A stretch of 64,000 nucleotides of DNA from Candidatus Omnitrophota bacterium (GCA_003598025.1 QZKH01000002.1:10133-74132); one strand, 5' to 3'. Shown: positions 3,707 through 20,927, counted from the stretch's first letter. Notes: generated by a model not told the origin, from the sequence alone. Translations and numbers: made by a program.

Positions 3707-5647
3707 ATGTTAACCCTTCTATTTTTTTTGATACCATGCTTATTTAGTTTTTCTATGGCTTTTTGGCAGCCGCTGATCAGCGATGAATTTGAGACTTTGG
3801 CATCAGCAAAGATGATGTCTGACGGTAGTTTGATCTATAAGGATTTCTTCCAGCACCACGGGCCGCTCTCTTATTTGTTATACCTGCCGGTTTTTAAATA
3901 TATTAAAAGCATATTCCTGGCTCTTTTATTATCGAAACTGGTTGCCATATGCGTTCTTATCCTAATACTTTTATTGGTTTTTAAGATATCCGAGGCAATT
4001 ACTAAAAGTAAATTTATGGGCTTGTTGGGAGTGCTTATGGTAATCGCTGACCCATTATGGGCTCAATATGGAGCGCAGGTGCGTCCGGATGCAATAATGA
4101 CTGTTTTTGCGTTGGGTAGCTTGTATTTATTGCTTATTTACGATGAAGGCAAGCGTAATATGTTCTTATGCTGGGCAGGGGCCTGTTTTGGGCTAGCATT
4201 TTTTGCTAAACAGTCAGCAATAGTATCAATCTTTATCTTCGCGCTTATTTATTTACGGGGCAATTTTAGAAGATACCTGCATTACTTTTTGGGGTTTTTC
4301 ATAGTTGCCCTGCCGGTTTTTGTTTACTTCTTTGCGGCAAAAGCGGTAAATAATTTTTTGCGCTATTTTATCTTATTTAATTTAAGAGCACATCCTACGG
4401 CTGAATTTAATATCAGCGAGAGGCTATGGCTGTTTTTTTCGCCATTGATACCAGCAGGTTTAAGGATCTCATATGGGTTAATCACTTTTATCTTTATTTA
4501 TGCTGCTATAAGGGTTTACTTTGCAAAGGGTAAATCAGCCACGCGTTTTATAAACTCTCTTTTATTATCGTCATTAATCGGGATGTTTCTGACATTTCTA
4601 TACAAGACCCCATATCCTCAATACTATTTGGCAATCCATTTAATGTTTATAATTGTTATTATTTTTCACTTAAACGAGGCCCCTAAAAAATTAAAAAAAG
4701 CGATGATGTTTTTTCTGGCGGGGGTAAGCATTGTATTCGCTTTCGTGAAATTTGAAGCTATGATTAGAAAAAATGATTTCCTTGCGCAAAGCAGATGCCT
4801 CTCTTCAATATCGGATTTACTAAGATCTAAAAAAGCTATCGGGCCGAGTTACATGGTTTTGGCCGGAAATCGTGCCGGGTTCTATTGGTATTATCCACCT
4901 ATATTTTCCGATGTCGATTTGAAGCCTATGTTCAGAGCGTTAAAAGATGCCGATATTGTATTTTATGACCACTCGCTTTCTCTGCTGGCGCCGTTAGATT
5001 TTAAGAAAAAATTATTTACCGATTTTGAGTTTATTGGCAGGTACTCTCTGCCGTTTAATAATAATCTAAATTTTGATTATGTATCAGTATTCTCTAAAGA
5101 TAGGGATTTGGCTGAAAAAATGATAAGCCAGGATCGTTTGGCTTGCTGGAATTATGAAGACGGCGAAAGGGGGCTTCTTAAAGATCCGCTTTATATCCCT
5201 GTTTATTTTAAAGCCAGGCTGTCCGGCAATGGCGATTTAATAAACCTTCGGCCCGGCAAGAACTCATTTAGTTATAAGGTTAAGCAGGAGTTATATCTGA
5301 GTATGTTTATAAGCGCAAATAAGATGTTTTTTGATAGAAGCACGAACATCTTATACAACCTTAAGCCAAATATAAAATATTCAATAAAAAAAGCAGGTAT
5401 AGCTTTCGAATGCAGATATAGAGAGCCACTTTCCACAGATGGCTTATTAGGGCTAGGCTTAAGGACTCCCGGAGAAAACGGTGTAAATGTTAATGGGGTA
5501 ATCAGTATTAAATTCAGCCGCTATCCAGATAAAATTAAAATCCAAGAGGTCCCGGATGGGTATAAGGTAATGTCAGCGTTTAATACTGATAGCCTAACTA
5601 TAGATATTCATTGTTCGGAATCATTGTTAGGGCAGGCAAGCGATTAA
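3707..5647 (+). CDS. GT-C fold membrane glycosyltransferase (ArnT/PMT-like, GT39/GT83 family), with a C-terminal soluble domain
   Basis: The N-terminal ~330 aa are strongly hydrophobic with many predicted TM helices. The first loop has a DE..L..A..M..G motif (ISDEFETLASAKMMSDGSLIYKDFFQHHGPL) like PMT_2/ArnT. It ends a run of four GT genes. Confidence 0.55.
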   Translation: MLTLLFFLIPCLFSFSMAFWQPLISDEFETLASAKMMSDGSLIYKDFFQHHGPLSYLLYLPVFKYIKSIFLALLLSKLVAICVLILILLLVFKISEAITKSKFMGLLGVLMVIADPLWAQYGAQVRPDAIMTVFALGSLYLLLIYDEGKRNMFLCWAGACFGLAFFAKQSAIVSIFIFALIYLRGNFRRYLHYFLGFFIVALPVFVYFFAAKAVNNFLRYFILFNLRAHPTAEFNISERLWLFFSPLIPAGLRISYGLITFIFIYAAIRVYFAKGKSATRFINSLLLSSLIGMFLTFLYKTPYPQYYLAIHLMFIIVIIFHLNEAPKKLKKAMMFFLAGVSIVFAFVKFEAMIRKNDFLAQSRCLSSISDLLRSKKAIGPSYMVLAGNRAGFYWYYPPIFSDVDLKPMFRALKDADIVFYDHSLSLLAPLDFKKKLFTDFEFIGRYSLPFNNNLNFDYVSVFSKDRDLAEKMISQDRLACWNYEDGERGLLKDPLYIPVYFKARLSGNGDLINLRPGKNSFSYKVKQELYLSMFISANKMFFDRSTNILYNLKPNIKYSIKKAGIAFECRYREPLSTDGLLGLGLRTPGENGVNVNGVISIKFSRYPDKIKIQEVPDGYKVMSAFNTDSLTIDIHCSESLLGQASD

Positions 5648-5714
5648 AATTTATATAAGTCAATTTATTTGTCTGGAGGCCTAAATTATGTTAATATAAT
5701 TACTCAATCACTTT

Positions 5715-6050
5715 ATGTTTGGAGGAATTATGGCTACAATCGATGATTTTAAGAAGTTAGAGTTAAAAGTTGCTGAAATAAAAGAAGTTACAGATCATCC
5801 CAATGCAGATAAGCTATATGTCCTGACAGTAGATTTGGGGGATAAAACAAAACAACTTGTTGCGGGGATCAAGAGGTCTTACCAAAAAGAAGAGCTCATA
5901 GGTAAGCAGGTAATAGTTGTTGATAATCTGGAACCGGCGGTTCTAAGAGGTATCGAGAGCCAGGGGATGCTCTTGGCTGCTTCTGATGAAGACGGCGTAG
6001 CTATTATTTCCTGCCAGCGCAAAGTCAAGCTCGGCAGTATTGTTAAATAG
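5715..6050 (+). CDS. tRNA-binding domain protein (CsaA/EMAP-like OB fold)
   Basis: ELKVAEIKEVTDHPNADKLYVLTVDLGDKTKQLVAGIKRSY...GMLLAA is the tRNA_bind OB domain found in the CsaA/PheT N-terminus. It is a standalone 111-aa protein. Confidence 0.7.
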   Translation: MFGGIMATIDDFKKLELKVAEIKEVTDHPNADKLYVLTVDLGDKTKQLVAGIKRSYQKEELIGKQVIVVDNLEPAVLRGIESQGMLLAASDEDGVAIISCQRKVKLGSIVK

Positions 6051-6053
6051 CAT

Positions 6054-7358
6054 ATGAAAAATATTATAATCGGCGCAGGTTTATCGGGCCTATCCTGTGC
6101 ATACAAGCTCAAGGACGCAATAGTTTTAGAAAAGGATATCGCTATAGGCGGTTTATCTAAAACCTTGTCTTTTGAAGGTTTTAGTTTTGATATTGGAGGG
6201 CATAGATTTTTACCGGGTAAGCCGGGTATAGAAAAATTTATCCTTAGCCTTCTTGACGGCGAACTGATCAAGATGGAACGTAAGAGCCAGATATATAAGA
6301 ACAGAAGGTTTTTTAATTATCCTATAACTCCCGATATCGTTTTTCAGCTCAATCCTTTACAAATATTTGCTTCAGGCATGACCTTTTTATACCGTAAAGT
6401 AGCCGTCTTGGATGAAAATTCATTTAGAGAGAGGGTGATAAATAGATTTGGCGATTATCTATTCAATTATTTTTTTAAGGATTATACCGAAAAGGTATGG
6501 GGCAGGGATTGCTCTAATATATCGCTTGATTGGGTTGACGCTCGGATCGGCAATATGTCTTTATTTGACGTGGCTAGCTATATTTTTTCGAAGAAAAGCC
6601 GCCTTAAATCTTTCGCGGACATGTTTTATTATCCTAAAACCGGGATTGGTTCTATAGCGGGCAGATTGTCAAGCGGCATAGATGTAAGGACATCCAGCGC
6701 TGTCGTCGGACTGGGCTACTCGGGTGGCCATATAAATGAAGTTGTGACTGACGATAACAAACGATTGCCATGTGATAATCTTATTTCTACAATGCCTATA
6801 ACAGAATTGGCAAGCATGCTTAATCCTCCTGCCGATGTCAAAAGAGCAATTGATGCCCTTAGCTATAGGGACCTGATCTGCGTTTTTATAATTGTTGAAA
6901 AAAATAATTATTCTGATAACCATTGGATCTATTTTCCGAACAAGGAGGTATTTGGGCGTTTGGATGAGCCCAAGAATTGGAGCAGGATATTATCTTCTCA
7001 TCACCAAACTGGCCTTTGCCTTGAGATATTTACCGACAGAAACAGCGAATTGTGGCACAGGGATGATTTAGAGATCGCACATGCAGCCGTAAAAGATCTG
7101 CCTCTTATAAACGGAGTAGATATAAAAGACCATTATGTATTACGTGTCTTTGATGCTTATCCTGTATACGACCTCCATTATAAAAAGCATCTTGCCGTGG
7201 TCAGAAAATTCCTGTCCGGTTATAAAAACTTATATACATTGGGCAGGACAGGGGATTTTAAATATATGAATATGGATGATTGTATTGAGCAGGGGCTTAG
7301 CTTGGGGGAAAGATTACCCGGTTCCAGGGTCTTAGAGGAGGACCGTAAATGCAAATAA
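6054..7358 (+). CDS. FAD-dependent oxidoreductase (amine oxidase / UDP-galactopyranose mutase / protoporphyrinogen oxidase superfamily)
   Basis: N-terminal dinucleotide-binding motif IIIGAGLSGLSCAYKL...VLEKDIAIGG...GGHRF. It is 434 aa and adjacent to the glycosylation locus. Confidence 0.6.
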   Translation: MKNIIIGAGLSGLSCAYKLKDAIVLEKDIAIGGLSKTLSFEGFSFDIGGHRFLPGKPGIEKFILSLLDGELIKMERKSQIYKNRRFFNYPITPDIVFQLNPLQIFASGMTFLYRKVAVLDENSFRERVINRFGDYLFNYFFKDYTEKVWGRDCSNISLDWVDARIGNMSLFDVASYIFSKKSRLKSFADMFYYPKTGIGSIAGRLSSGIDVRTSSAVVGLGYSGGHINEVVTDDNKRLPCDNLISTMPITELASMLNPPADVKRAIDALSYRDLICVFIIVEKNNYSDNHWIYFPNKEVFGRLDEPKNWSRILSSHHQTGLCLEIFTDRNSELWHRDDLEIAHAAVKDLPLINGVDIKDHYVLRVFDAYPVYDLHYKKHLAVVRKFLSGYKNLYTLGRTGDFKYMNMDDCIEQGLSLGERLPGSRVLEEDRKCK

Positions 7359-7858
7359 AACAGTTTATTCCTCGCGATGTTTGTTTGTCCTGTAAAGGCT
7401 GCTGCAGGTTTTTACGGGCAGATTCAGTATGGTCGCCATGTCTTTTAGATGAAGAAATCCAGGACCTGCTGGGCAAAAATATCCCGGCGGCCAATATTTC
7501 TATCAACAAAAAACTGCTTCTCGTGCAAGCTCCTGATGGCCAGGGGTATTTATGCCCTTTTCTAAAGATAAAAGATAATAAGTGCAGTATTTATAATTTC
7601 AGGCCGTTTGAGTGTCAACTGTACCCTTTTTTGCTTAACCTGCGCCATGGTAAGATCATTTTAACAGTAGACCTTAATTGTCCTTACGTAAAAGAAAAAT
7701 TAAAAAGCAAGGAATTCAAAGAGTATGTTGATTATCTGAACGAGTTCCTTAATTCTCCTGCCCAATTGGAGATAATAAAGGATAACCCGCATATTCTTCA
7801 AACCTACGAAGAGGTCCTTGAGATAATCGAGCTTTCTCCTCCAGATGGAGCTAAATAA
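7349..7858 (+). CDS. YkgJ/UPF0153 family Cys-cluster (putative Fe-S/Zn) protein
   Basis: CLSCKGCCRF (CxxCxxCC) is the family hallmark. A second Cys pair lies near PFECQLYPF. Confidence 0.5.
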   Translation: MQIKQFIPRDVCLSCKGCCRFLRADSVWSPCLLDEEIQDLLGKNIPAANISINKKLLLVQAPDGQGYLCPFLKIKDNKCSIYNFRPFECQLYPFLLNLRHGKIILTVDLNCPYVKEKLKSKEFKEYVDYLNEFLNSPAQLEIIKDNPHILQTYEEVLEIIELSPPDGAK

Positions 7859-8735
7859 ACTAAGCATAAAAGATAAGCCGTTATTCAGCAAGTTTCTGAA
7901 GATTAAAAGGCATGAGCTTTCAGTTTATGCTTTTGAGAATATTTATCCCTGGTCCAGCTTATTTGAAATTAAATGGGGTATAATTAAGGGCAGCCTGTGT
8001 GTCTTCTTTTACGATAAGACAGGGTGTTTCTTATATATTGAGCCGTTAGCAAAAAATATCGATTACAAGGTCGTGGATAAATGTTTTGAGATCATGGATA
8101 GCCACAACAGGAATAAAGCGGTGTCCCGTATTGAGAATATAGAGCAGGACAACTGTAAGTTCTTTCATGACGCAGGCTACCGCCTCCTGGAAAAACCATG
8201 TGATTTTATTTTTCAGAAAAACAGTATCGCCGGGCTCAGAGGTAATGCCTATAAGTCAAAAAGAGCGAGCTTTAATTATTTTATTAAGCATTATAAATTT
8301 CATTCGCGGGATTTGGGAATAGAAGATATTGGCGCCTGCCTTAAGCTGTATTCCTCATGGGCTAAAAACAGAAGGCTCAGAGTTGAAGACCGGGCTTATC
8401 ATTGGATGATAGAAGATAGTTTTGCTTCCTTAAGGAGCGTATTGGAGAATTACCCATCTTTGGGTTATTCCGGCAGGGTAGTCGAGGTAGATGGTGATAT
8501 CCGGGCATTCACAATAGGGTACATGTTGAATAGCGATACCTTCTGTATATTCTTCGAGATAGCGGATCTGTCAATAAAAGGCCTGGCACAGTTTATTTTT
8601 AGTGATTTTTGTGCAGGGCTTAAGGCATATAAATATGTCAATGCGATGGATGATTCCGGGCTGGATAATTTAAGAAAAGTTAAGTATTCTTACCGGCCTC
8701 TAAAGCTGGTACCTGCGTACATCGCCGTCAGGTAA
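7845..8735 (+). CDS. Hypothetical protein, DUF2156-like (GNAT/FemABX-fold, possibly an aminoacyl-tRNA-dependent transferase domain)
   Basis: Size is ~296 aa. It has an SKRASFNYFIKHY motif resembling the K/R-x-x-x-N motif of the MprF C-terminal/FemX-like domain. I cannot assign it more firmly without an HMM search. Confidence 0.35.
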   Translation: MELNKLSIKDKPLFSKFLKIKRHELSVYAFENIYPWSSLFEIKWGIIKGSLCVFFYDKTGCFLYIEPLAKNIDYKVVDKCFEIMDSHNRNKAVSRIENIEQDNCKFFHDAGYRLLEKPCDFIFQKNSIAGLRGNAYKSKRASFNYFIKHYKFHSRDLGIEDIGACLKLYSSWAKNRRLRVEDRAYHWMIEDSFASLRSVLENYPSLGYSGRVVEVDGDIRAFTIGYMLNSDTFCIFFEIADLSIKGLAQFIFSDFCAGLKAYKYVNAMDDSGLDNLRKVKYSYRPLKLVPAYIAVR

Positions 8736-8743
8736 GGGTATTT

Positions 8744-9571
8744 TTGTTCATAGCTATGGATATAAATGATATAGAATTTACAATTTTTGATACCGAAACA
8801 ACCGGGCTTAACCCGCATTCCGGAGACAGGGTAGTTGAAATCGCCGCTGTCCGCATAAAGGGATTCCGGAAAATTTCAACATTTGAAAGCCTTATTAATC
8901 CAGGCAGAGGCGTATCTGAGGCGGCCTTTAATGTCAATCATATTGCTGAAAGCATGCTTCAAACAGCGCCGTTTCCGGAAAAAGTTTTTCCGGAATTCCT
9001 ATCGTTCATAAAAAACAGTTGCATCTGTTCATATAATGCAAGTTTTGATATTGCATTTTTGGATAAAGAGCTTGGATTGCTCGGCCAAAGATTAGACGAT
9101 AACGTTATTGTTATAGATATGCTGAAGATGGCCAGGCGCCTTTTGCCTGGTTTAGAGCGTTATGCCTTATGGTTTGTGGCAGACTATTTCGGCATAAAGC
9201 GCAAACAGGAACACAGGGCCTTAGCTGATGTGGAATTCAGCCTAGAGGTATTTTATAGGCTGATGAATATGTTAAAAGAAAGATCTATCGTAGAGATGGA
9301 TAATTTTATGCATCTTTTTGGAATAAGGTCTGAGGCGGTTTCCGGGATAAACAACGAAAAAATCGCCGAAATACAGGAAGCAATTGATCTTGGTGTTGAA
9401 ATAAAAATCAGATATATATCTGCGGTCAACGCTAAGGTTACAGAACGCAACGTCTTGCCGAAGCAGATTATACAGGATAAAGGGCAGGATTACCTGGTGG
9501 GGTATTGCAGCTTAAGGCAGGACCAGAGGACTTTTAGAATCGATGGCATACTGGATATCGAAATCTTATAA
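8744..9571 (+). CDS. DnaQ-like 3'-5' exonuclease (DEDDh) fused to a C-terminal WYL domain
   Basis: Exo I FDTETTG, Exo II YNASFDIAFL and Exo III HRALADV are present. The C-terminal 60 aa, IRYISAVNAKVTERNVLPKQIIQDKGQDYLVGYCSLRQDQRTFRIDGI, match the WYL-domain consensus (IxYxS...YLxGxC...RxFRxDRI). Confidence 0.7.
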   Translation: MFIAMDINDIEFTIFDTETTGLNPHSGDRVVEIAAVRIKGFRKISTFESLINPGRGVSEAAFNVNHIAESMLQTAPFPEKVFPEFLSFIKNSCICSYNASFDIAFLDKELGLLGQRLDDNVIVIDMLKMARRLLPGLERYALWFVADYFGIKRKQEHRALADVEFSLEVFYRLMNMLKERSIVEMDNFMHLFGIRSEAVSGINNEKIAEIQEAIDLGVEIKIRYISAVNAKVTERNVLPKQIIQDKGQDYLVGYCSLRQDQRTFRIDGILDIEIL

Positions 9572-10916
9572 ACTGGACTTTTCTTGCGCAGAGTTATTTT
9601 TGGCTCTGAGCCGGAAGAGGTCGCCGTTTTTCTTGGATAGCAGCCTTAATATGAATAATAAAGATGGGCGCTTTTCTTTCTTAGGTTGTGAGCCGTTTCA
9701 GTTTATCCAGGGAGATAAAATAAACCCTTTCCCGGCATTAAGGAAAATATTCCGCGATTACCGCATATCTGCCCCGGACATGAACGTGCCATTTTTCGCA
9801 GGAGCGGTCGGGTACTTTGCCTATGATTTGGGATTTGTTTTGGAAAAGAAAATTGCTTTAAATAAAAGAGCAGCAGGCAGTATCCCGCAGGTCTATTTTA
9901 ATTTTTATAATACCATTATTGCGATAGACCACATTAAGAATGAATTCCATATATTATCGGTCGGTTTTCCCGGGAGAAACTACCGGATGCAGAAAAAAAT
10001 AGCGACAGAGAATTTTAAGAATGCTTATAAAATGATACGGCGCGCTAAAGACGAGCGGGTTGACGATTGCCTTGGCATGAAACCAAAAAGAACAGATTTC
10101 CGTTCCGATTTTACTAAAAACAAATATATTGCGGCAGTCGTTAAAGCGAAGGATTATATTAAAAAAGGAGATATTTATCAGGTGAACCTTTCTCAGCGGT
10201 TGTCTTCTAAAAGCCGTGCCTCCGCGGTTAATATATATATGAATTTACGCAGGCTCAGCCCGAGTAATTTCTCTGCATATTTCGATACGGGAGATTTTCA
10301 GATTATTTCTTCTTCGCCGGAGAGATTCTTAAATTTATCCGGAGGACGTGTTGTAACAAAACCCATGAAAGGCACGCGAGCGCGCTCTTTAAATAGCGTA
10401 AAGGATATTAAGCTCAGAAATGAATTGATCCGCAGCCCTAAGGATAAGGCCGAGCTTTTAATGATAGTTGACCTGGAGAGGAATGATTTGGGCAGAGTTT
10501 GTGATTATGGTTCGGTAAAGGTCGATACTCTCAGGGAGATAGAAAAATATAATTCTGTCTTTCAGGCTACTTCCACAATAAGCGCTAAATTGCACCCTGG
10601 TAAAGACAGGTTTGATCTCCTGCAGGCATGTTTCCCAGGAGGTTCTATTACCGGTTGCCCTAAGATAAGGGCTATGGAGATAATCGATGAGCTTGAGCCG
10701 CTTGAGCGCTCCATTTATACCGGATGCCTGGGATATTTAAGTTTCTGCGGAAATATGGATTTTAATATTATGATACGCACCATACTTAAGCAAAAAGATA
10801 AGGTTTATTTGGGGGTTGGCGGAGGGATTGTAGCCGACTCAGAGCCTGTTAAGGAATATGAAGAAACTTTGGTTAAGGCCAAAGCTATGATTGAGGCTAT
10901 AGCTTATGCAGGGTAA
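9543..10916 (+). CDS. pabB: Aminodeoxychorismate synthase component I (chorismate-binding enzyme; PabB/TrpE family)
   Basis: Chorismate_bind motifs: SPERFL, KPMKGTRAR, DLERNDLGRVC, GAMEIIDELEP..RSIYTGCLGY. I call it pabB rather than trpE because a class IV aminotransferase-like lyase follows immediately and overlaps it. Confidence 0.7.
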   Translation: MAYWISKSYKLDFSCAELFLALSRKRSPFFLDSSLNMNNKDGRFSFLGCEPFQFIQGDKINPFPALRKIFRDYRISAPDMNVPFFAGAVGYFAYDLGFVLEKKIALNKRAAGSIPQVYFNFYNTIIAIDHIKNEFHILSVGFPGRNYRMQKKIATENFKNAYKMIRRAKDERVDDCLGMKPKRTDFRSDFTKNKYIAAVVKAKDYIKKGDIYQVNLSQRLSSKSRASAVNIYMNLRRLSPSNFSAYFDTGDFQIISSSPERFLNLSGGRVVTKPMKGTRARSLNSVKDIKLRNELIRSPKDKAELLMIVDLERNDLGRVCDYGSVKVDTLREIEKYNSVFQATSTISAKLHPGKDRFDLLQACFPGGSITGCPKIRAMEIIDELEPLERSIYTGCLGYLSFCGNMDFNIMIRTILKQKDKVYLGVGGGIVADSEPVKEYEETLVKAKAMIEAIAYAG

Positions 10917-11739
10917 AATGACGGTCTTTTTTAACGGTAAATTTGTAGACAGGCATGATCTGAAGGCTTCGGTCCTGGATGAAGGGTTTCTTTATGGATA
11001 CGGGCTATTTGAAACCATGCGTGCTTACAATAATAAAATATTATTATTAGACCAGCACATAGAAAGAATGTTTGTTTCTGCAGGATTGATATCTTTTGCA
11101 ATGCCTTATTCATCGGCAAAAACCAGGGATATAGTGGAATCAGCCGTTCTAAAATCCGGCTTAAAAGACGCCTTTGTAAGGTTGTCATGCTGGAGGTCAA
11201 AGAAGATAAACAGCATATTAGTCATTGCAAGAAAATACAAACCCTACTCTTCGAGGGTGTATAAAAAAGGTTTTTCTGCTATAATCTCAAGGTTTACTAA
11301 AGACCAGGATTCAATGTTAAGCAGAATAAAAAGCAATAACTATCTTTTATGCAGGTTGGCTTTTATGGAAGCCTTAAGCCTTAAGTCCGATGAAGCAATT
11401 TTGTTGAACAACGACGGATTAATCTGTGAAGGCAGCAGGTCGAATATTTTCTTTGTAAAAAACAGACGGATTTATACGCCTTCTTTAGAATGCGGCTGTT
11501 TATCCGGCATAACGAGGGAATTGATTATAAAGATGATTCTTAGATCAGGGCTGGATGTCAAAGAGGGTAAATTCGGGATTAACCAGTTATATGCAGCAGA
11601 TGAGGCTTTCTTTACCAATTCTTTGATGGGTGTTATGCCTTTAACTAAAATCGGCAAGCTCAGGATAAATAACTCTAATACCGGTAAGATAACCGAAAAA
11701 CTCATTTCCGATTACGATAACTTATTAAAAAACGCATGA
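10906..11739 (+). CDS. pabC: Aminodeoxychorismate lyase (class IV aminotransferase fold)
   Basis: GFLYGYGLFETMRAYNNK...LDQHIERM is a class IV (BCAT/ADCL) signature. The position after pabB and the size (277 aa) fit PabC. Confidence 0.6.
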   Translation: MQGKMTVFFNGKFVDRHDLKASVLDEGFLYGYGLFETMRAYNNKILLLDQHIERMFVSAGLISFAMPYSSAKTRDIVESAVLKSGLKDAFVRLSCWRSKKINSILVIARKYKPYSSRVYKKGFSAIISRFTKDQDSMLSRIKSNNYLLCRLAFMEALSLKSDEAILLNNDGLICEGSRSNIFFVKNRRIYTPSLECGCLSGITRELIIKMILRSGLDVKEGKFGINQLYAADEAFFTNSLMGVMPLTKIGKLRINNSNTGKITEKLISDYDNLLKNA

Positions 11740-12851
11740 CAATAATTAACCTTCCGTTTATTATGAAAAGTCCGGTGCTGGCTCTAGGCGCCAACAGCAA
11801 GAATAGAATCTGTTTTGCTAAAGGCAGTAAAGCATATTTAAGCAATATGCATGAGAATTTGGATAACATAGATGATCTATCCGAATTTGAAAAAAGTGCC
11901 AAGAGCGCATTAAGCAGAAAGCCAAAAATCATCGCCTGTGATCTGCACAGCGGATATTTATCCAGCAGATACGCTGATGAAATAAGCGAAGGCAATTTAT
12001 TAAAAAAGCCTATCCAGCACCATCACGCTCATATTGCTTCATGCATGGCCGAGAACCAATTTAAAAATGAATACGTTATAGGTGTTGCTTTCGACGGCAC
12101 GGGTTTAGGCGTTGACGGCAATATCTGGGGAGCAGAATTTCTTTTCTGTAATTATGCAAATTTCCAGAGGTTAATCCGCCTAGAATATATCCCGCTCCTG
12201 GGTTCGGAAAAGGCAATAACTGAACCGGCAAGATTAGCATATCTATGGTTGTACTTAATTTATAAAGATAGATTCTTGGATATAAAGATTAACCTGACCC
12301 AGGCTTTAAAGCCAAAGAAATGGGCGGTCTTTAAAAAGATGTATTCATCCGGCTTTAATTCTCCCAAAGCAAGCAGTATGGGACGTTTGTTTGATGCTGT
12401 CGCCAGCATAGTACTCGGCAAGCAAAAGGCAGAATTTGAGGCGGATTTAGCCATACAGCTTCAGAGGCTTGCTGAGAAAAGCAGTGATGTGCAGGCAGCT
12501 TATAAATTTTCATTTGTAAAACAGCCGCCTCTTTTTGTAATAGACCCAAGAGATATCTTTAAGGGTGTGGTTAAAGATACGACAAGCGGGCTGCCTGCCG
12601 GATATATTGCTAATCGGTTCCATTATACTATTGCCAGTATAATACTTGAGGGAGCAGAAAAAATAAGAAAGATAAAAAAGGCCAATAAAGTCGTGCTTTC
12701 AGGAGGGGTATTTCAAAATAGTCTTTTACTCCGCATGACTTTGGAATTATTATATAAGAAAGGCTTTAAAGTTTATACCCACAAGGCTTTATCCCCGAAT
12801 GACTCAAGTATAGCCTTGGGGCAGGCAGTAATAGCTAACTTCAAGGAATAA
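11736..12851 (+). CDS. hypF: HypF C-terminal Kae1/TsaD-like carbamoyltransferase domain, standalone (the acylphosphatase, Zn-finger and YrdC domains are absent)
   Basis: VLALGANSKNRICFAKGSKAYLSNMHENL...KIIACDLHSGYLSSRYA...IQHHHAHIASCMAEN...VIGVAFDGTGLGVDGNIWGAEF matches the HypF Kae1-like domain (HHHAH and DGTG(Y/L)G(D/V)DG motifs). At 371 aa it covers only about the C-terminal half of a canonical ~750-aa HypF. Confidence 0.7.
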   Translation: MTIINLPFIMKSPVLALGANSKNRICFAKGSKAYLSNMHENLDNIDDLSEFEKSAKSALSRKPKIIACDLHSGYLSSRYADEISEGNLLKKPIQHHHAHIASCMAENQFKNEYVIGVAFDGTGLGVDGNIWGAEFLFCNYANFQRLIRLEYIPLLGSEKAITEPARLAYLWLYLIYKDRFLDIKINLTQALKPKKWAVFKKMYSSGFNSPKASSMGRLFDAVASIVLGKQKAEFEADLAIQLQRLAEKSSDVQAAYKFSFVKQPPLFVIDPRDIFKGVVKDTTSGLPAGYIANRFHYTIASIILEGAEKIRKIKKANKVVLSGGVFQNSLLLRMTLELLYKKGFKVYTHKALSPNDSSIALGQAVIANFKE

Positions 12852-12852
12852 T

Positions 12853-13065
12853 ATGTGCTTAGCAGTCCCAATGAGAATAAAGAAGATTAATCAAAATTTC
12901 GCCAAGGTTGAAATCTCCGGTCTTATACGGCATGTAAACGTGCAGATGCTACCCGGGTTAAAAAAGGGAGATTATGTAATCGTGCATGCGGGTTTTGCGA
13001 TACAAAAAATAGACCCCCTGGAAGCCAAAAAAACATTAAAGGTGTTTAATGAAATATGTAGATGA
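12853..13065 (+). CDS. hypC: Hydrogenase maturation factor HypC/HupF
   Basis: The N-terminal MCLAVPMRI has the essential Cys2. The 70-aa OB-fold protein starts 2 nt after the hypF-like stop and overlaps hypD. Confidence 0.85.
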   Translation: MCLAVPMRIKKINQNFAKVEISGLIRHVNVQMLPGLKKGDYVIVHAGFAIQKIDPLEAKKTLKVFNEICR

Positions 13066-14152
13066 ATTCCGCAATAAAATACTTGTTGAGAAGATCGCAT
13101 CAGGGATCAAGGCCTTGAATATCGACGCAAAAGTTAACCTTATGGAAGTCTGCGGAACGCATACTCAAAGTTTTGCAAGGTTTGGCCTGAATAAATTCCT
13201 GCCTGAAAATATACGGCTTATACCGGGACCGGGATGCCCGGTTTGCGTTTCAAGCCCGCAGTATATAGATAGGGCGATTAGCTTGGCCAAAGACAAAAAC
13301 AATATAATTGTTACTTTCGGTGATATGCTGCGTGTCCCGGGTAGCGTATCATCTCTAGAAAAAGAAAGGATGCGTTTTGGCAATGTTATTGCCGTATATT
13401 CACCGCTGGATGCCTTAAGGATTGCCAAGGCGGATTCCGCAAAAAAAATATTTTTTCTTGCCGTTGGTTTTGAGACTACAGCCCCCACTATTGCTATAAC
13501 AGCAATGCTTGCCAAGAAGGAGAAAATAAACAATATTTTCTTTCTATCTTCCCTAAAGCTGATGCCGCCTGCGATGAGGTTTTTGTTAAAAGATAAGAGG
13601 CTTAATATAGATGGTTTTCTTTGCCCGGGGCATGTCTCCAGCATTATCGGTCTTAAGCCCTATGAATTTATACCGCGTAAGCATAAAATAGGTTGCTGTG
13701 TGGCAGGTTTTGAGCCGACGGATATCTTAGAAGGAATACTTATGCTTTGCCGGCAGATCGCAGACAATAAGCCCAGGGTAGATAATCAATACAGCAGGGT
13801 TGTAAAAAATAACGGCAACCCTAAAGCCCGGAAAATTATCCACAATGTATTTGAAACCTGCGATGCGCAGTGGAGAGGCTTAGGCGTGATTACAAATAGT
13901 GGCCTTAAATTAAGAAAAAAATACTCGGGTTTAGATGCCGAGTCAATCATGCATTTTGAGAGAAGAACAGTGTTCCATCCGGAAGAGTTTGCTAAGGGAT
14001 GCAAATGCGGCCAGGTTCTAAAAGGGCTGATTATGCCTAAAGACTGCCCGTTATTCTACGTGAAGTGCAAGCCGGATTCTCCCATTGGCCCATGTATGGT
14101 TTCCAGCGAAGGAGCATGCAATGCGTATTTCAGGTATAAAAGGCAGAAGTAA
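13049..14152 (+). CDS. hypD: Hydrogenase maturation factor HypD
   Basis: MKYVDEFRN N-terminus, the CGTHTQSF and PGPGCPVCV motifs, and the C-terminal Cys-rich CKCGQV...CPLFYVKC. Confidence 0.85.
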   Translation: MKYVDEFRNKILVEKIASGIKALNIDAKVNLMEVCGTHTQSFARFGLNKFLPENIRLIPGPGCPVCVSSPQYIDRAISLAKDKNNIIVTFGDMLRVPGSVSSLEKERMRFGNVIAVYSPLDALRIAKADSAKKIFFLAVGFETTAPTIAITAMLAKKEKINNIFFLSSLKLMPPAMRFLLKDKRLNIDGFLCPGHVSSIIGLKPYEFIPRKHKIGCCVAGFEPTDILEGILMLCRQIADNKPRVDNQYSRVVKNNGNPKARKIIHNVFETCDAQWRGLGVITNSGLKLRKKYSGLDAESIMHFERRTVFHPEEFAKGCKCGQVLKGLIMPKDCPLFYVKCKPDSPIGPCMVSSEGACNAYFRYKRQK

Positions 14153-14153
14153 A

Positions 14154-16523
14154 ATGCGTGGCAGCATTATTTTTATCCTTATCTTGTTTGGCGGAACGTT
14201 GTCGCTGTCATGCCAAAAGATAAGCGATTTTGATACAGCCAGGCATTATTCAGACCTTTCCGATATTTATTATCATCAGGCCGAACAAGGGTATAAGCGG
14301 CTTATAGAAAAAGAACCGGGTAACCAGGCAGTAAAGTTAGGCCTGGCAAAATTATACTATTCTCACGGCGAGTTAACCCTTGCTATAGATATACTGAAGA
14401 GCTTGAGCTTGCCGGAGGCAATGAAAATCCTGGCCATTTCTTATTATAAGTCAGGGGATTTTACCTTAGCCTTGGATGTATTCACTAAAAACAGTAAAAG
14501 TGCAGATGATGAATATTTATACTACTGGGGGTTAGTATGCGAGAACCTGAATCTTTTCGACCAGGCGCTTGATATATATTCGAAAGTAAGGGCCGGTGAG
14601 TTCTTACAACTGGCGCATAAACGTTTGCAACTAATCGAAAAAAGATCGCAAGCCGCAAATATAAAGGATTCCGACCCGAAATTATATAAAATACTTATAC
14701 AGAAAGCAAATCCGGATAAATACCCCCAGGCAGGTGCGCTGATCCTGCTTTCTGATGAGAAAGTAAAAATAAAAGAAGATAACAGCCAGTTAGAGGACTT
14801 ACATTACGTAATAAAGATTATTAATGAAAGGGGTAAAGAAACCTTTGCCGAGGCAAGCATTGATTATGATTCTACGTTTGAAAAAGTCGAGCTGGAATAT
14901 GCAAGGACCATAAAGCCAGATGGTAGCATAGTCGGGGTAGGCAGCCGCCATATTCGGGATGTATCAAAGTATCTTAATTTTCCTCTTTATAGCAATTCCA
15001 GGGTCTTTATAATATCTTTCCCCGAGGTTTCAGAAGGGTGTATTCTTGAATACAAGGTTAAAATACATAGCAGTAAGCTTATTAACGATAAAGATTTTGT
15101 TATCGCTTACCCTTTGCAAGCTCAGGAACCTATAGCAGAGGCAAGATTCCAGCTTAGCACTCCTTTGCGGCTTAAGCCCAACATTACTAAAATAAACGAG
15201 CAATATAACAATTTCTCGGCTAACCTTAATCCGGAAGTCACCCAGGCAGGCAATACAATGATTTATAGCTGGGTTTTTAAGGATATCCCCCAGTTGATTC
15301 CGGAAAATAATATGCCGGCAGTTGTTGATATTAATCCTGCTATTCTGCTCTCTACTTTTAATTCCTGGCAAAACGTCCATGAATGGTGGTGGAATTTGGC
15401 AAAAGATAAGATCGCCGCCGATAAAGATATAAAGCGGCAGGTCCGTTTGCTTACTAAAAGGTGTAAATCTGCCGAAGCCAAGGCCAGGGCAATTTATAAT
15501 TTCTGTGCGCAAAAGATCCGCTATGTTGCGGTTGAGTACGGCCAAGCCGGTTATGAACCGCACAGGGCAGAGGATATATACAGAAATAAATACGGTGATT
15601 GTAAAGACCAGGCTGTATTACTGGTGGCTATGTTAAAAGAAGCGGGTTTTGACGCCTGGCCGGTGCTTATTTCTACAAAAGGTTATTATAATCTGGATCC
15701 GGGCTTTGCTTCTTCTATGTTCAACCACTGTATAGCTGTATTGGAATTGCACGGTAAATTCATTTTTCTCGACCCGACTGCTGAAACCTGTTCATTCGGA
15801 GATCTGCCGGCAGTTGACCAGGAGAGAAAAGTTTTGATAATAAAACCGGACAAATACCAAATCGAGGATACTCCGTTATTTGACGCCGCACATAACCTGA
15901 TTCAGCAAAAGATAACAGCCAGGATAAACAAAAATGAGGGAATATCGGCAGAGAAAATAGTTGATACCCGCGGTATATATGACCAGCTGCAAAGGGCCTG
16001 GCTCTTATATACTCCCCCTGAAATGATATTGGATGCGATTAAGGAACGAATGCAGGATATTTCAATAGGAGCTAAATTGATTGATTATAAAATCCTTAAC
16101 GCAGATGATATTAACAAGCCGGTAGTATTATCTTATAAGTTCGAAGGCCCTGAGTACTTTACTCAGGCAGGCCCGCTTAGAGTTATGCCGCAGCTTGTAA
16201 GCCTTGATCCATCTCTTGTAGGCAAAGAAAAGCGTAAGTACCCCATAGAATTTCATATTTTAGACAAAAAAGAAATGGCATTTTATATTGAAATTCCGTA
16301 TAACTTTGTTATAAAATATGTTCCTGAAAGTATTATTGAAGACAGCCCCTGGATGAAATTACAGGTTGAGTACAGGGTCAATAAAAACAAGATATATGCC
16401 CGGCAACAGGTCGAGCTTAAGAAAAGGATTATACCTCAAGAAGATTATAATAAATTCCAATCTTTTTATACTAGTGTTGCTAAGAAGATTAAACAAAGGA
16501 TTATTTTGGAAAGGTTAAGATAA
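14154..16523 (+). CDS. Lipoprotein with TPR-like repeats, DUF3857 and a transglutaminase-like (Cys protease) domain
   Basis: I place the start at ATG 14154 (MRGSIIFILILFGGTLSLSC, a lipobox-like LSLSC) rather than the overlapping upstream ATG at 14085. The transglutaminase core YGDCKDQAVLLVAMLKEAGFDAWPVLIS is present, as is the DUF3857-like region. Confidence 0.65.
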   Translation: MRGSIIFILILFGGTLSLSCQKISDFDTARHYSDLSDIYYHQAEQGYKRLIEKEPGNQAVKLGLAKLYYSHGELTLAIDILKSLSLPEAMKILAISYYKSGDFTLALDVFTKNSKSADDEYLYYWGLVCENLNLFDQALDIYSKVRAGEFLQLAHKRLQLIEKRSQAANIKDSDPKLYKILIQKANPDKYPQAGALILLSDEKVKIKEDNSQLEDLHYVIKIINERGKETFAEASIDYDSTFEKVELEYARTIKPDGSIVGVGSRHIRDVSKYLNFPLYSNSRVFIISFPEVSEGCILEYKVKIHSSKLINDKDFVIAYPLQAQEPIAEARFQLSTPLRLKPNITKINEQYNNFSANLNPEVTQAGNTMIYSWVFKDIPQLIPENNMPAVVDINPAILLSTFNSWQNVHEWWWNLAKDKIAADKDIKRQVRLLTKRCKSAEAKARAIYNFCAQKIRYVAVEYGQAGYEPHRAEDIYRNKYGDCKDQAVLLVAMLKEAGFDAWPVLISTKGYYNLDPGFASSMFNHCIAVLELHGKFIFLDPTAETCSFGDLPAVDQERKVLIIKPDKYQIEDTPLFDAAHNLIQQKITARINKNEGISAEKIVDTRGIYDQLQRAWLLYTPPEMILDAIKERMQDISIGAKLIDYKILNADDINKPVVLSYKFEGPEYFTQAGPLRVMPQLVSLDPSLVGKEKRKYPIEFHILDKKEMAFYIEIPYNFVIKYVPESIIEDSPWMKLQVEYRVNKNKIYARQQVELKKRIIPQEDYNKFQSFYTSVAKKIKQRIILERLR

Positions 16524-16529
16524 GCCCCA

Positions 16530-18476
16530 ATGGCAAAAACAACTGATAATGAGCAAAACAGAAGAAGATATCATCGTATAAATACTGTATTACCGGTCCA
16601 ATTCAGGCTTGTTTCATTTGAAGGCAGGCATTTTTTATCTGGATGGCTCCAGGGTTTTACCAGCAACATCAGCAAGGGCGGGATTTGTCTGGCTGTCAAT
16701 AATCTTAATCCGGAGCTGGCGGCTTTGGTGATAAGCAAGGAGGTAAAAACCTCCATGGATATTGAGATGCCCGTATCAAGAAACCCTATATCTGCCTTGG
16801 CGCATATAGCATGGGTTAAAGAACAGATTTTGCCGACAGGTAATAAATACCTTATAGGATTAAGTTATGATGAAATAAACCCTGTCCACAACAGGCTGAT
16901 AATGCGTTATGTTTGGCTTAAAAAATTATTTTTTCCGATTTCCGCTTCCGTAATACTGTTGCTTGGCCTAGGCTTGGTTGTAAACAGCATAATGACTGCC
17001 AGGCTAATGGAGGGCAATAAATTACTTGTTGCTGAGCTATTAAAGAATGTGAATGATTCAAATTCTGCCAGGGCCAAAATTAAAGAAATGGATACCGAGA
17101 AATTAAAACTGGAATCCGAGTTAAGCCGGCTTCATGTGATGATAGGGTCTTTGGAGGCCGAAAGAGATTCATTAAACAGAAAAAATAATAAGGTTGAAGA
17201 GTTGGCATCACGTATTGAAGAGGTGACCCGCCAGAAAGAAGCATTACAAAAAGAACTTGCAGCCCTAAATAGCACCCAGAGTGCCGAAGTTAAGAAACTG
17301 GATTTATTAAGCAAGGAAAAATTAAAACTTGAAAAAGCCAATGTTTCTAAAATGTACGACTGGATTAGCGTACATCAAAACCCGAGCAATGGCCTGGTTA
17401 TGAGTTTTGAGGGCGATAGAGATATCCGCGGATGGTCGTTCATTTATGATCAGTCGCTGGCAGCGCAGGTTTTTATGATTTTTGCTGATTTTGACCGGGC
17501 AGCGATGATGTTGGATTTCTTCGATAGTAAAGCCCAAAGGATAGACGGCCTGTTTTTAAACGCCTATTATTTTAATGATGGTTCGCCGGCGGAATATACC
17601 GTTCATGCAGGGCCGAATATCTGGCTGGGTATAGCGGCATTGCAGTATACGCATAAGACAGGGGATACCAGTTTCCTGAGTATGGCTGAAGAGATAGCCA
17701 ACGGCATAATGCAATTACAAAATGAAGACGAAGAAGGAGGGATAAGGGGCGGACCGAATTTCGGCTGGTATTCAACTGAGCACAATCTTGATGCCTATGC
17801 ATTTTTTGATATGTTGCATATAATAACCGGAAAAGCTATTTATAAAACAGCCAGAGATAAAACATCTGCCTGGCTTAAAAAACATATTTATGATAAAGGA
17901 GATGTCCCCATAAGGCGCGGCAAAGGTGATTCGACGATCGCGACTGATACGTATGCCTGGGCAATAGCGTCATTCGGCCCTGAGACGCTGATAGATATGA
18001 AGATGGACCCGGACAAAATAATTGAATTTGCTGAAAATAACTGTGTGGTAGAAGTCCCCTTCTGCAGGTTAGACGGCCAAATAGTGAAAGTAAAGGGTTT
18101 TGATTTTGCTCCGGAAAGAGGCTTGGCAAGGGGAGGAGTGGTATCTGCGGAATGGACAGGACAGATGATTGTGACCATGAAGATTATGTCTGCGTATTAT
18201 TCTTCAAAAGGCATACCGGAAAAAGCAGCCCTTTATGCAAATAAGGCTGACGAATATTTGTCTGAACTCAGCAAAATGATAATTTCAAGCCCTTCTCCTT
18301 CTGGCCAGGGAGAAAGCTGCCTTCCTTACGCAACTCAGGATTTCGTTGATACAGGACACGGCTGGATGACACCTAAAGGTAAAGATACCGGTTCATTATC
18401 CGGTACTGCCTATGCTATATTCGCTTACTATAATCATAATCCTTTAAAGTTCAAGAAGGATGGCCAGAAAAATTAA
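16530..18476 (+). CDS. PilZ domain protein with a TM segment, a long coiled coil and a C-terminal ~380-aa α-rich domain (possible six-hairpin glycosidase-like)
   Basis: The N-terminus has the PilZ motifs RRRYHRI (RxxxR) and NISKGGICL (D/NxSxGG). There is a hydrophobic segment FFPISASVILLLGLGLVV. The repetitive LESELSRLH...LEAERDSL...EELASRIEEVTRQKEALQKELAAL stretch is coiled-coil. Confidence 0.6.
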   Translation: MAKTTDNEQNRRRYHRINTVLPVQFRLVSFEGRHFLSGWLQGFTSNISKGGICLAVNNLNPELAALVISKEVKTSMDIEMPVSRNPISALAHIAWVKEQILPTGNKYLIGLSYDEINPVHNRLIMRYVWLKKLFFPISASVILLLGLGLVVNSIMTARLMEGNKLLVAELLKNVNDSNSARAKIKEMDTEKLKLESELSRLHVMIGSLEAERDSLNRKNNKVEELASRIEEVTRQKEALQKELAALNSTQSAEVKKLDLLSKEKLKLEKANVSKMYDWISVHQNPSNGLVMSFEGDRDIRGWSFIYDQSLAAQVFMIFADFDRAAMMLDFFDSKAQRIDGLFLNAYYFNDGSPAEYTVHAGPNIWLGIAALQYTHKTGDTSFLSMAEEIANGIMQLQNEDEEGGIRGGPNFGWYSTEHNLDAYAFFDMLHIITGKAIYKTARDKTSAWLKKHIYDKGDVPIRRGKGDSTIATDTYAWAIASFGPETLIDMKMDPDKIIEFAENNCVVEVPFCRLDGQIVKVKGFDFAPERGLARGGVVSAEWTGQMIVTMKIMSAYYSSKGIPEKAALYANKADEYLSELSKMIISSPSPSGQGESCLPYATQDFVDTGHGWMTPKGKDTGSLSGTAYAIFAYYNHNPLKFKKDGQKN

Positions 18477-19092
18477 ACTTTTCTATAAGAAACTTTTTTC
18501 CGAATTTGGGCAGCAGTATTGGTGGCCTGCAGATTCGGCTTTTGAGGTAATGATAGGGGCTATCCTTACCCAGAATACCAGCTGGTCTAATGTAGAAAAA
18601 GCGATAGCAAATCTTAAGAAGAATAAACTGCTCTCCCCTAAGAAACTCCGCGCTCTTTCCAGGAAGAGGCTTGCTATTTTGATCAGGCCAGCAGGATATT
18701 TTAATCTTAAAGCAGCAAGGATATCAGCTTTCCTTGATTTTATCTTCAAAAGATACCGCGGCCAAATAAGCAAGATGCGGGCACAAAAAACCAGTGTTTT
18801 ACGAGATGAGCTGCTTGGGGTAAAAGGCATAGGCCCGGAAACAGCAGATTCAATGTTACTATATGCATTGAACAAGCCGGTATTCGTAGTTGATGCTTAT
18901 ACAAAGAGAATATTGCTTCGCCATGGCTTGATTTCCGACCAGTACACTTATGGGCAGATACAGGCTATGTTTATGAAAAACTTAAAACCAAGTTCAAAGC
19001 ACTTTAACGAATACCATGCCCTTTTGGTAAAGCTGGGAAAAGAATTCTGCCTAAAGTCGAGAAAAAAATGTATGATATGCCCGTTAAGATAA
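18460..19092 (+). CDS. HhH-GPD superfamily protein (endonuclease III / 3-methyladenine glycosylase-like)
   Basis: Helix-hairpin-helix motif LLGVKGIGPETADSMLLYALNKPVFVVDAYTKRIL. A partial C-terminal Cys cluster (C-x7-C-x2-C) is present. Confidence 0.6.
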   Translation: MARKIKLFYKKLFSEFGQQYWWPADSAFEVMIGAILTQNTSWSNVEKAIANLKKNKLLSPKKLRALSRKRLAILIRPAGYFNLKAARISAFLDFIFKRYRGQISKMRAQKTSVLRDELLGVKGIGPETADSMLLYALNKPVFVVDAYTKRILLRHGLISDQYTYGQIQAMFMKNLKPSSKHFNEYHALLVKLGKEFCLKSRKKCMICPLR

Positions 19093-19772
19093 TAAAGCCG
19101 GTATTTCTCAGTATCGTAGTCTGTCTTTTATGCCAGGGCAAAGCTGTAAGCGCACCTTGCTATGGAGCCAGAATGCCTAAAAAGAACGAGTTCCACGCGG
19201 GAGCCTCTAATTACTCAATACTGAAAAGGTATTTGGAGAATGAACAAGGCAAAATAAGAAGTTCTCAGAATTTTTTTGACCTCTCTTACGGTTTATATGA
19301 TTGGCTTTCTATCGATTTAAAAGGCGGCACAGGGAATATCAAACAGCATCCTGTGGGGGCCGATGAGCTTGATTATCCTTCGTCATTTGCTGGAGGGTAT
19401 GGTTTCAGGATAAAGTTTTTTGATAGAAATCAATTTAAAGCTGTCTGCGGATTCCAGCATATCAGCGTGCATCCGGAAAAAATTCGCGTCGGTCAAACAG
19501 GGCATGCTGCAATACTGGATGATTGGCAGTTTTCAGTATTAATATCCAGGCAGGTAGCAAATATTGATCCTTATATCGGTGTTAAATTATCAAGGACAGA
19601 TTATATACACAGGCAGGACGGCATAAGAGAGCGGTATATGTCAGACCTGACTAAGAATATCGGTCTTTTCTTAGGCATAGACCTGCCTATTACAGAAAGA
19701 TGCTGGTTTAATATTGAGGCGCAGTTTGTGGATGTCCAGGCATTTGCCGGCGGCATAAAATATTCCTTTTAA
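19068..19772 (+). CDS. Secreted protein, putative outer-membrane β-barrel
   Basis: An N-terminal signal peptide (VFLSIVVCLLCQGKAVSA), alternating hydrophobic β-strand patterns, and a C-terminal ...GGIKYSF ending in Phe. Confidence 0.4.
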   Translation: MYDMPVKIIKPVFLSIVVCLLCQGKAVSAPCYGARMPKKNEFHAGASNYSILKRYLENEQGKIRSSQNFFDLSYGLYDWLSIDLKGGTGNIKQHPVGADELDYPSSFAGGYGFRIKFFDRNQFKAVCGFQHISVHPEKIRVGQTGHAAILDDWQFSVLISRQVANIDPYIGVKLSRTDYIHRQDGIRERYMSDLTKNIGLFLGIDLPITERCWFNIEAQFVDVQAFAGGIKYSF

Positions 19773-19773
19773 G

Positions 19774-20907: not shown

Positions 20908-20927
20908 TAAATATAAGGAGAGCAATA

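Follow-up and report, generated by a model that had tools for sequence, protein, structure and literature searches.

According to our analysis, a 64,000-nucleotide (nt) stretch of DNA from Candidatus Omnitrophota bacterium (GCA_003598025.1, QZKH01000002.1:10133-74132), hereafter the window, encodes, with a probability of roughly 70%, the branch of [NiFe]-hydrogenase maturation that provides the cyanide ligands and the iron scaffold, in the minimal form of an Omnitrophota clade and set within a compact run of housekeeping genes. The genes in question, all on the plus strand, are hypF' (11736-12851), hypC (12853-13065), hypD (13049-14152), and hypE (22577-23590). HypF' (371 amino acids [aa]) consists of the Kae1-like carbamoyltransferase domain alone, with matches to HypF_C and HypF_C_2 only, whereas models of hydrogenase maturation derive carbamoyl-adenylate from the acylphosphatase, Zn-finger, and YrdC-like domains of HypF. 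This domain-stripped HypF is lineage-typical, in that it characterizes a large Omnitrophota clade, and it appears to be the only HypF present.

Domain content and structure of HypF'

Pfam detected in HypF' no acylphosphatase (PF00708), no zf-HYPF zinc fingers (PF07503), and no YrdC-like domain (PF01300), in agreement with the first-pass annotation of this DNA, which had reported a HypF reduced to its Kae1 domain; the same gene occurs in at least 10 independent assemblies. Against the full-length model TIGR00143, the protein covers positions 382 to 740 of 741 and scores 241.8 bits, the cut-off of 466.1 not being reached. It is identical to RJP29464.1 ("MAG: carbamoyltransferase HypF," MAG standing for metagenome-assembled genome), and a second assembly, GCA_020060685.1, has identical genes on a 57-kb contig.

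Compared with the canonical HypF of Escherichia coli and of Caldanaerobacter subterraneus (3VTH and 3VTI), HypF' lacks about 380 residues comprising the acylphosphatase, the two Zn-fingers, and the YrdC-like domain, whereas its Kae1-like domain is complete. HypF' aligns to residues 398 to 746 of 3VTH (E = 4.5e-71) with 39% identity over 369 columns, and its AlphaFold (AF2) model, which has a predicted local distance difference test (pLDDT) score of 91.4, fits the Kae1-like domain of both 3VTH and the HypE-HypF complex 3VTI with template modeling (TM) scores of 0.91 to 0.92 and root mean square deviations of 1.7 to 1.9 Å over 369 to 371 columns (TM 0.91 for 3VTH; TM 0.92 and 1.7 Å for 3VTI). 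Kae1/TsaD structures are the next-best fold matches of the model. An alignment of 26 HypF' homologues contains 73 invariant columns, including QHHHAH, FDGxGLG, and a C-terminal Asp, and the HHHAH, DGTG, and ND motifs as well as residues H95 to H99, D120, and D356 are invariant throughout. Both the HHxAH/Asp metal site and the ASKHA nucleotide motifs by which a Kae1-like domain is recognized are present, as in the canonical enzyme, and HypF' also resembles the latter in the adjoining hypC and hypD genes and in its canonical HypE partner. Since the N-terminal domains are missing, however, HypF' cannot hydrolyze carbamoyl phosphate or adenylate in the way that the canonical enzyme does.

Distribution and origin of Kae1-only HypF proteins

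The best 120 homologues of HypF', retrieved from NCBI, JGI, ENA, and Logan assemblies, all measure 362 to 417 aa, contain HypF_C and HypF_C_2, and are 50 to 58% identical to the window protein (the protein itself aside). None of them carries an acylphosphatase, zf-HYPF, or YrdC domain, the few additional hits being weak, overlapping matches of related families on the same stretch, and every one that bears an organism name is labeled Omnitrophota or Omnitrophica. A HMMER scan of 1.84 billion representatives of clusters formed at 50% identity gave 10,043 matches, the best 150 of which were classified as full length (68), Kae1-only and starting at their own N terminus (43), intermediate or partial (34), or fragments (5). 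In about 14 of these 150 nearest representatives, 200 to 243 residues precede the Kae1 domain, possibly reflecting a further HypF architecture in which YrdC is joined to Kae1 but the acylphosphatase and Zn-fingers are missing.

In a neighbor-joining tree of Kae1 domains, 30 Kae1-only representatives group with the window protein and with those of three further loci (L009, L033, and L092; our locus numbers) in a single clade of 34 leaves. This clade includes no full-length or partial member, the other short forms being dispersed between full-length HypFs, and a single origin of the Omnitrophota Kae1-only clade is likely. Among the matches listed in scans of two collections, full-length HypFs from other phyla predominate. 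Of the 80 loci listed for GTDB species, 70 have an in-frame extension of at least 385 codons ahead of the Kae1 domain and 4 are Kae1-only, three of these four showing the Omnitrophota gene context of the window, while the metagenome scan listed one Kae1-only locus out of 80.

The architecture has one studied precedent, HypF1 of Cupriavidus necator H16 (pHG1, 394 aa), which exists beside a full-length HypF2 and whose activity is disputed. HypF1 likewise contains HypF_C and HypF_C_2 only, aligns end to end with HypF' at 28% identity, and is encoded directly upstream of hypC-hypD-hypE, in the array hypA1B1F1C1D1E1X beside the membrane-bound hydrogenase. HypF' fits this type in length (approximately 370 to 400 aa), domain content, and position next to hypC-hypD. 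The two differ in descent: HypF1 falls outside the Omnitrophota clade of the neighbor-joining tree, common descent is not supported, and the two truncations appear to be independent. They also differ in genetic context, since C. necator has at least one full-length copy in addition (HypF2; three matching places on pHG1), whereas no HypF other than the short form was seen in or near the hyp and hydrogenase clusters of the Omnitrophota. HypF1 has been described as "unusually truncated" (PMC5350229) and as an enzyme that "likely requires carbamoyl adenylate," with its activity debated (PMC9100943).

HypC, HypD, and HypE and the predicted pathway

Judged by their sequences, the partners of HypF' are canonical, all three passing the curated NCBIfam cut-offs and keeping their hallmark residues. 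HypC (70 aa; HupF_HypC, 1.9e-26), the Fe(CN)2CO scaffold chaperone, scores 73.6 bits with TIGR00074 (cut-off, 48) and starts with MCLAVP, which includes the essential Cys2. HypD (367 aa; Pfam HypD, 4.4e-141), the Fe-S scaffold protein, reaches 448.7 bits with TIGR00075 (cut-off, 192.8), and the CGxH, GPGCPVC, GFETT, and PGHVS motifs are all kept in its alignment together with the C-terminal Cys cluster. HypE (337 aa; AIRS and AIRS_C), the carbamoyl dehydratase and thiocyanate carrier, scores 416.2 bits with TIGR02124 (cut-off, 251.6) and ends in PRIC.

Following the steps of the maturation pathway named in PMC9100943, HypF' would move the carbamoyl group from carbamoyl-adenylate onto the C-terminal Cys of HypE, a role suggested by the intact Kae1 domain, the PRIC terminus of HypE, and the linkage of the genes. 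HypE would then dehydrate the carbamoyl group to thiocyanate with ATP, the cyanide would be handed to iron held on HypC (through Cys2) and HypD, and the resulting Fe(CN)2CO unit would be delivered to a large subunit encoded elsewhere in the genome.

Source of carbamoyl-adenylate

As HypF' is devoid of the acylphosphatase, Zn-finger, and YrdC-like domains, carbamoyl-adenylate would have to come either from a trans-acting enzyme or from the Kae1 domain itself. In this family of reactions, a YrdC-like site makes the acyl-adenylate and a Kae1-like site carries out the transfer, and in the synthesis of threonylcarbamoyladenosine (t6A) the two functions are assigned to separate proteins, TsaC/Sua5 and TsaD/Kae1. 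The t6A enzymes and the TobZ-type carbamoyltransferases share this catalytic logic with HypF, and t6A synthesis offers an example of a stand-alone Kae1-type transferase working with a diffusible adenylate; by analogy with TsaC and TsaD, a trans-acting YrdC-family enzyme would be the most natural source. The parallel differs in several respects from the case of HypF', which resembles TsaD only marginally in sequence (E = 3.5e-4), whose substrate would be a protein cysteine, and for which no dedicated YrdC partner was found in the searched loci.

A stricter version of supply in trans is a split HypF, already considered in the first-pass annotation, in which a protein made of the acylphosphatase, Zn-finger, and YrdC modules is encoded elsewhere and furnishes HypF' with carbamoyl-adenylate. 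Such a split concerns the carbamoyl-adenylate step only and is compatible with the role in hydrogenase maturation proposed here. It would mirror the homologous two-protein t6A system, and proteins limited to acylphosphatase, zf-HYPF, and YrdC do occur on long database contigs (e.g., P0256, P0288, and P0335). Canonical chemistry, moreover, needs carbamoyl-adenylate (PMC9100943). Our searches yielded no positive evidence for it, though: a tblastn search with eight HypF N-terminal modules matched nothing at an E value of ≤0.1 in 332 kb, comprising the window, all Kae1-only loci, and three 4g hydrogenase clusters, while the positive control was recovered in 8 of 8 cases, and two complete hyp-hydrogenase superclusters (L033 and L092) contain no such gene. 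A database search with the N-terminal module from Ratteibacteria returned mainly contig-end partials, with none of the best 120 matches located on a contig carrying the gene block of the window, and most N-only matches are either contig-end partials or derived from frameshift-prone long-read assemblies. We consequently deem a split HypF unlikely, although it survives better than the other alternatives discussed below. Four N-only proteins (P0256, P0288, P0335, and P0337; 395 to 444 aa with acylphosphatase, Zn-fingers, and YrdC) are encoded on contigs 79 kb to 2.1 Mb long and may represent genuine split HypFs in other lineages or else long-read frameshifts.

Link to group 4g [NiFe]-hydrogenases

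In relatives, members of the same HypF' clade are encoded beside a hydrogenase. In L033, from an Omnitrophota species representative, hypF' (375 aa, Kae1-only) is followed by hypC, hypD, hypE, and hypA and then by electron-transfer subunits and a group 4g Mbh-Mrp [NiFe]-hydrogenase, recognized by NADHdh, by Oxidored_q6, and by a large subunit that combines Complex1_49kDa with NiFeSe_Hases. L092, from another assembly, encodes a HypF' of 367 aa and contains the whole supercluster through Mbh-Mrp and HycI, and L095 has the same hyp part. These superclusters share with the window the Kae1-only HypF clade and canonical HypC, HypD, and HypE, and neither an N-terminal HypF module nor hypB was seen in the three loci. 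They differ in that their hyp genes form an uninterrupted run next to the hydrogenase, whereas those of the window and its closest counterparts are embedded among housekeeping genes, with seven genes separating hypE from hypD and with hypA and the hydrogenase presumably elsewhere. The hydrogenase large subunit is 72 to 90% identical across more than 120 Omnitrophota clusters.

Two further genes of the hydrogenase-linked clusters L033, L092, and L095 deserve mention. An AbpE_bact protein is found in the place expected for hypB, and a conserved 344-aa protein with no Pfam match is encoded directly upstream of hypF' (L033:8868-9902, L092:1-886, and L095). The latter was considered as the missing adenylating enzyme and rejected, given that Pfam does not recognize it and that neither the window nor the loci of the window type contain a homologue.

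The gene block of the window is itself tied to a genome with a 4g enzyme. One locus with this block, L009, belongs to GCA_002771995.1 (contig PCRK01000096.1), the type genome of "Sherwoodlollariibacterium unditelluris," for which a group 4g [NiFe]-hydrogenase has been described; Amyimicrobium and Fontincolimonas, of the same family, are described with 4g enzymes as well. L008 and L009 map to the Profunditerraquicolaceae, as does SURF_18, the genome with which the window is associated (see below). In addition, L088 (genus UBA1562, same family) possesses the entire 4g Mbh-Mrp-HycI cluster and lacks hyp genes over 16 kb, which fits the view that the Profunditerraquicolaceae keep their hyp genes elsewhere in the genome. 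Omnitrophota have been reported to possess group 3b, 3d, and 4g [NiFe]-hydrogenases and group A3 [FeFe]-hydrogenases, usually one per genome (PMC8542988; PMC10066038). By analogy with these relatives, the expected target of the Hyp proteins would be a group 4g Mbh-Mrp enzyme. We infer that the hyp block serves such a hydrogenase in the Profunditerraquicolaceae and that, in the window genome, a target would be encoded elsewhere.

Several points weigh against this assignment. No [NiFe]-hydrogenase, hypA, hypB, or endopeptidase gene was found in the 74 kb formed by the window and 10 kb upstream of it. Seymour et al. (PMC10066038) equate GCA_003598025.1 (QZKH01) with SURF_18, "Profunditerraquicola sanfordiae" (10 contigs, N50 of 408,832, 41.02% GC, 95% completeness), and the protologue, in the part considered here, gives a group A3 [FeFe]-hydrogenase only; so does the description of Undivivens industriae, of the same family. 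Among 20 Omnitrophota large-subunit matches checked by accession, none is from the assembly of the window (RJP series); the HypF' and large-subunit match lists have no long contig in common, and three large-subunit contexts that were inspected come from other assemblies. No source of carbamoyl-adenylate was found in the searched loci and database matches. The sufficiency of a Kae1-only HypF is uncertain, since HypF1 showed no activity when tested by complementation in E. coli (PMC5350229), and our trees are neighbor-joining trees with no support values.

Taken at face value, these points would accommodate an orphan Hyp set, in a genome without [NiFe]-hydrogenase, where HypF', HypC, HypD, and HypE are either the relic of a lost hydrogenase or the producers of an Fe-CN/CO unit or thiocyanate for some other target. 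An [FeFe]-only description of a 95%-complete MAG in 10 contigs, echoed by that of U. industriae, 74 kb free of hydrogenase, hypA, and hypB, and the fact that no large-subunit match among those checked was traced to the assembly would all agree with it. Set against this are the physical linkage of the same HypF' clade to 4g hydrogenases, the co-occurrence of the same gene block with a 4g hydrogenase in S. unditelluris, and the catalytic motifs of HypC, HypD, HypE, and HypF', all of which are canonical and give no hint of a new substrate; furthermore, the identity of the window with SURF_18 is only probable, and 5% of the SURF_18 genome, by the completeness quoted above, is missing. To our knowledge, Fe(CN)2CO has no use outside [NiFe]-hydrogenases, and literature searches on orphan hyp genes returned nothing relevant. 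That the genome keeps the HypF'CDE set without any [NiFe]-hydrogenase is therefore improbable in our view, somewhat more so than a split HypF. It is less probable still that the intact set, without [NiFe]-hydrogenase, HypA, and HypB, delivers an Fe-CN/CO unit or protein-bound thiocyanate to a non-hydrogenase acceptor, with a Kae1-only HypF working independently of acylphosphatase and YrdC modules. The first-pass annotation was right that [NiFe]-hydrogenase genes, hypA, and hypB are absent from the window, as our Pfam scans agree; its suggestion of a noncanonical target is unlikely for the clade, whose members include short HypFs beside 4g hydrogenases, and for the window genome it is left at the low odds of the orphan set.

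Gene order and linkage to pabB and a pabC-like gene

The hyp genes belong to an array spanning 6054-23590 on the plus strand, in which all genes are co-directional and no intergenic gap exceeds 48 nt, with gaps of 406 nt before and 199 nt after it; such an arrangement suggests that the array is co-transcribed. hypE is its last gene and lies 8.4 kb downstream of hypD. A terminator-like hairpin (23749-23774, plus strand), made of a 10-bp stem with 6 G-C pairs followed by a T-run and recognized by consensus match only, is the best plus-strand candidate in a scan of 5000-24500; it falls inside the 199-nt gap 3' of hypE and would probably end the array. Between hypD and hypE, a spacer of seven genes (14085-22528, plus strand; Pfam) encodes a TPR-DUF3857-transglutaminase protein, a 648-aa PilZ-containing protein, an HhH-GPD glycosylase, a 234-aa protein of unknown function, an M20 peptidase, a PAC2 protein, and a HAD protein. 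The separation of hypD and hypE reported previously is correct, but the notion of hypE as a separate unit behind unrelated genes does not hold, in view of the shared gap-free array, the hairpin placed after hypE, and the retention of the spacer in relatives.

The comparison with related genomes proposed in the first-pass annotation showed that the block, including the seven spacer genes, is conserved, one gene after another, in at least seven further Profunditerraquicolaceae assemblies. One gene order is common to nine loci, whose HypF' proteins are 49 to 58% identical to that of the window, namely, (tRNA_bind)-CxxCxxCC-LPG_synthase_C-RNaseT/WYL-pabB-pabC-hypF'-hypC-hypD, followed by TPR/DUF3857/transglutaminase-~650 aa-HhH-GPD-~235 aa-M20-PAC2-(HAD)-hypE, and the block with the same spacer order is kept in L002 to L009. 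The order of the approximately 17 mixed housekeeping genes in 6054-23590 is constant across Profunditerraquicolaceae genera at 40 to 67% protein identity, a synteny that is unusually rigid for such divergence. A further locus, L012 (CAYOMI010000028.1), labeled "uncultured Planctomycetales," shows the Omnitrophota-type CxxCxxCC-LPG_synthase_C-RNaseT/WYL-hypF' context at 48 to 62% identity to the window, and this MAG is probably mislabeled. The spacer genes were also considered as Hyp accessories and ruled out, since among 150 hyp loci elsewhere the spacer families (PAC2, M20, and others) gave two distant co-occurrences only, at chance level, and no Hyp link was found.

Upstream of hypF' lie pabB (9543-10916, plus strand), encoding aminodeoxychorismate (ADC) synthase component I (457 aa; Chorismate_bind, 8.8e-91, and Anth_synt_I_N), and a pabC-like gene (10906-11739, plus strand), encoding a fold-type IV pyridoxal phosphate (PLP) enzyme (277 aa; Aminotran_4, 3.4e-56). 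PabB passes the equivalog cut-off of TIGR00553 narrowly (339.7 against 328.4 bits), and this is the sole MST-family equivalog cut-off that it reaches (trpE_most, 388 against 518), the isochorismate synthase and salicylate synthase models scoring it below their cut-offs; the question whether it groups with ADC synthases, raised previously, is answered by the NCBIfam models in favor of pabB. The pabC-like protein reaches no NCBIfam cut-off of the branched-chain aminotransferase (BCAT), D-amino acid aminotransferase (DAAT), or PabC models, the best PabC model, NF005800, giving 186.7 against 308 and the BCAT models scoring higher, also below their cut-offs. Its tentative designation as aminodeoxychorismate lyase comes from its position next to pabB, which it overlaps in the window, a succession repeated in L002 to L008.

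With respect to overlaps, the coordinates of the five genes from pabB to hypD given in the first-pass annotation are exact, and three of the overlaps are real (pabB/pabC, 11 nt; pabC/hypF', 4 nt [ATGA]; hypC/hypD, 17 nt), whereas hypF' and hypC, described as overlapping as well, are separated by a 1-nt gap (TAA, one base, ATG). Overlap is generic in the window, where 15 of 50 consecutive gene pairs overlap and 28 of 50 are spaced by ≤10 nt.

The coupling of pabB and pabC to the hyp genes, which had been regarded as unusual, could in principle reflect a functional operon connecting folate or para-aminobenzoic acid (pABA) metabolism with cofactor synthesis, for instance, by deriving the CO ligand from folate along the HypX route, N10-formyl-tetrahydrofolate being the CO source under aerobic conditions (PMC9100943). 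The genes do overlap, and pabBC precede hypF' in five further arrangements (L002, L003/L004, L005, L006/L007, and L008). In L009 and L012, however, hypF' is present without pabBC, the preceding gene being LPG_synthase_C or RNaseT/WYL, so that the linkage is not obligatory; pabBC are likewise missing from the hydrogenase-linked clusters L033, L092, and L095, and none of the loci matched a HypX homologue. A functional operon is largely refuted by these exceptions, and we consider it very improbable. Given the frequency of overlapping pairs in the window and the two relatives without pabBC at this site, the linkage of pabB and the pabC-like gene to the hyp genes reflects genome compaction; the two are ordinary folate-precursor genes that happen to be neighbors of the hyp set. 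Both the displaced hypE and the adjacency of pabBC reflect a conserved compact synteny and not function.

Least credible of all is that the short HypF results from frameshift, misassembly, or decay of a full-length gene, as happens with the many truncated HypF entries in public data that are contig-end or frameshift products: the Aminotran_4 match of pabC occupies residues 33 to 249 of 277 and the pabC stop overlaps the hypF' start, leaving no room for a frameshifted N terminus of about 380 residues and no residual similarity to one, and a protein of 362 to 417 aa recurs in more than 100 clusters from independent assemblies with the 73 invariant columns described above. The short HypF is real, and the two scenarios by which it had been thought that it might be explained away are refuted, an assembly error by the abutting pabC and the agreement of many assemblies and a degraded paralogue by the size of the conserved clade and the intact catalytic motifs.

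Other features of the window

Pfam scans took in every large open reading frame (ORF) of the window, and besides the genes listed above as absent they detected no [NiFe]-hydrogenase subunit of any kind and no acylphosphatase, zf-HYPF, or YrdC domain. The GC content is about 41%. All large genes but one are on the plus strand of the window (1-64000), and the GC skew is positive in each 2-kb bin, which indicates a very strong strand bias and compaction. Right after the terminator-like site that follows hypE, the segment 23790-26955 (plus strand) contains two tandem D-Ala-D-Ala-ligase-like ATP-grasp genes and then a lysine-2,3-aminomutase-like radical S-adenosylmethionine (SAM) gene, possibly involved in beta-lysine-related chemistry. 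Further downstream, a 233-aa YchF-like ORF (29258-29959, plus strand) begins 10 nt past the stop codon of the elongation factor G (EF-G) gene and has the YchF-GTPase_C domain only, with no P-loop N terminus; it could be a truncated or split YchF.

Implications

The region is largely ordinary and raises one mechanistic question, namely, where the carbamoyl-adenylate originates. What is new with respect to HypF1 is a whole Omnitrophota clade with a Kae1-only HypF, amounting to at least 30 clusters at 50% identity, two members of which stand beside a group 4g hydrogenase. Annotation pipelines that demand a full-length TIGR00143 match will miss or misjudge the Omnitrophota HypF, and the lack of a hydrogenase near the hyp genes should not count as its absence in metabolic reconstructions. 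The old puzzle of HypF1 becomes testable by comparative genomics and by an assay of HypF' with HypE. If an active [NiFe]-hydrogenase is made by these Omnitrophota, either carbamoyl-adenylate would be supplied to HypF' in trans or the Kae1 domain would be more self-sufficient than has been thought.

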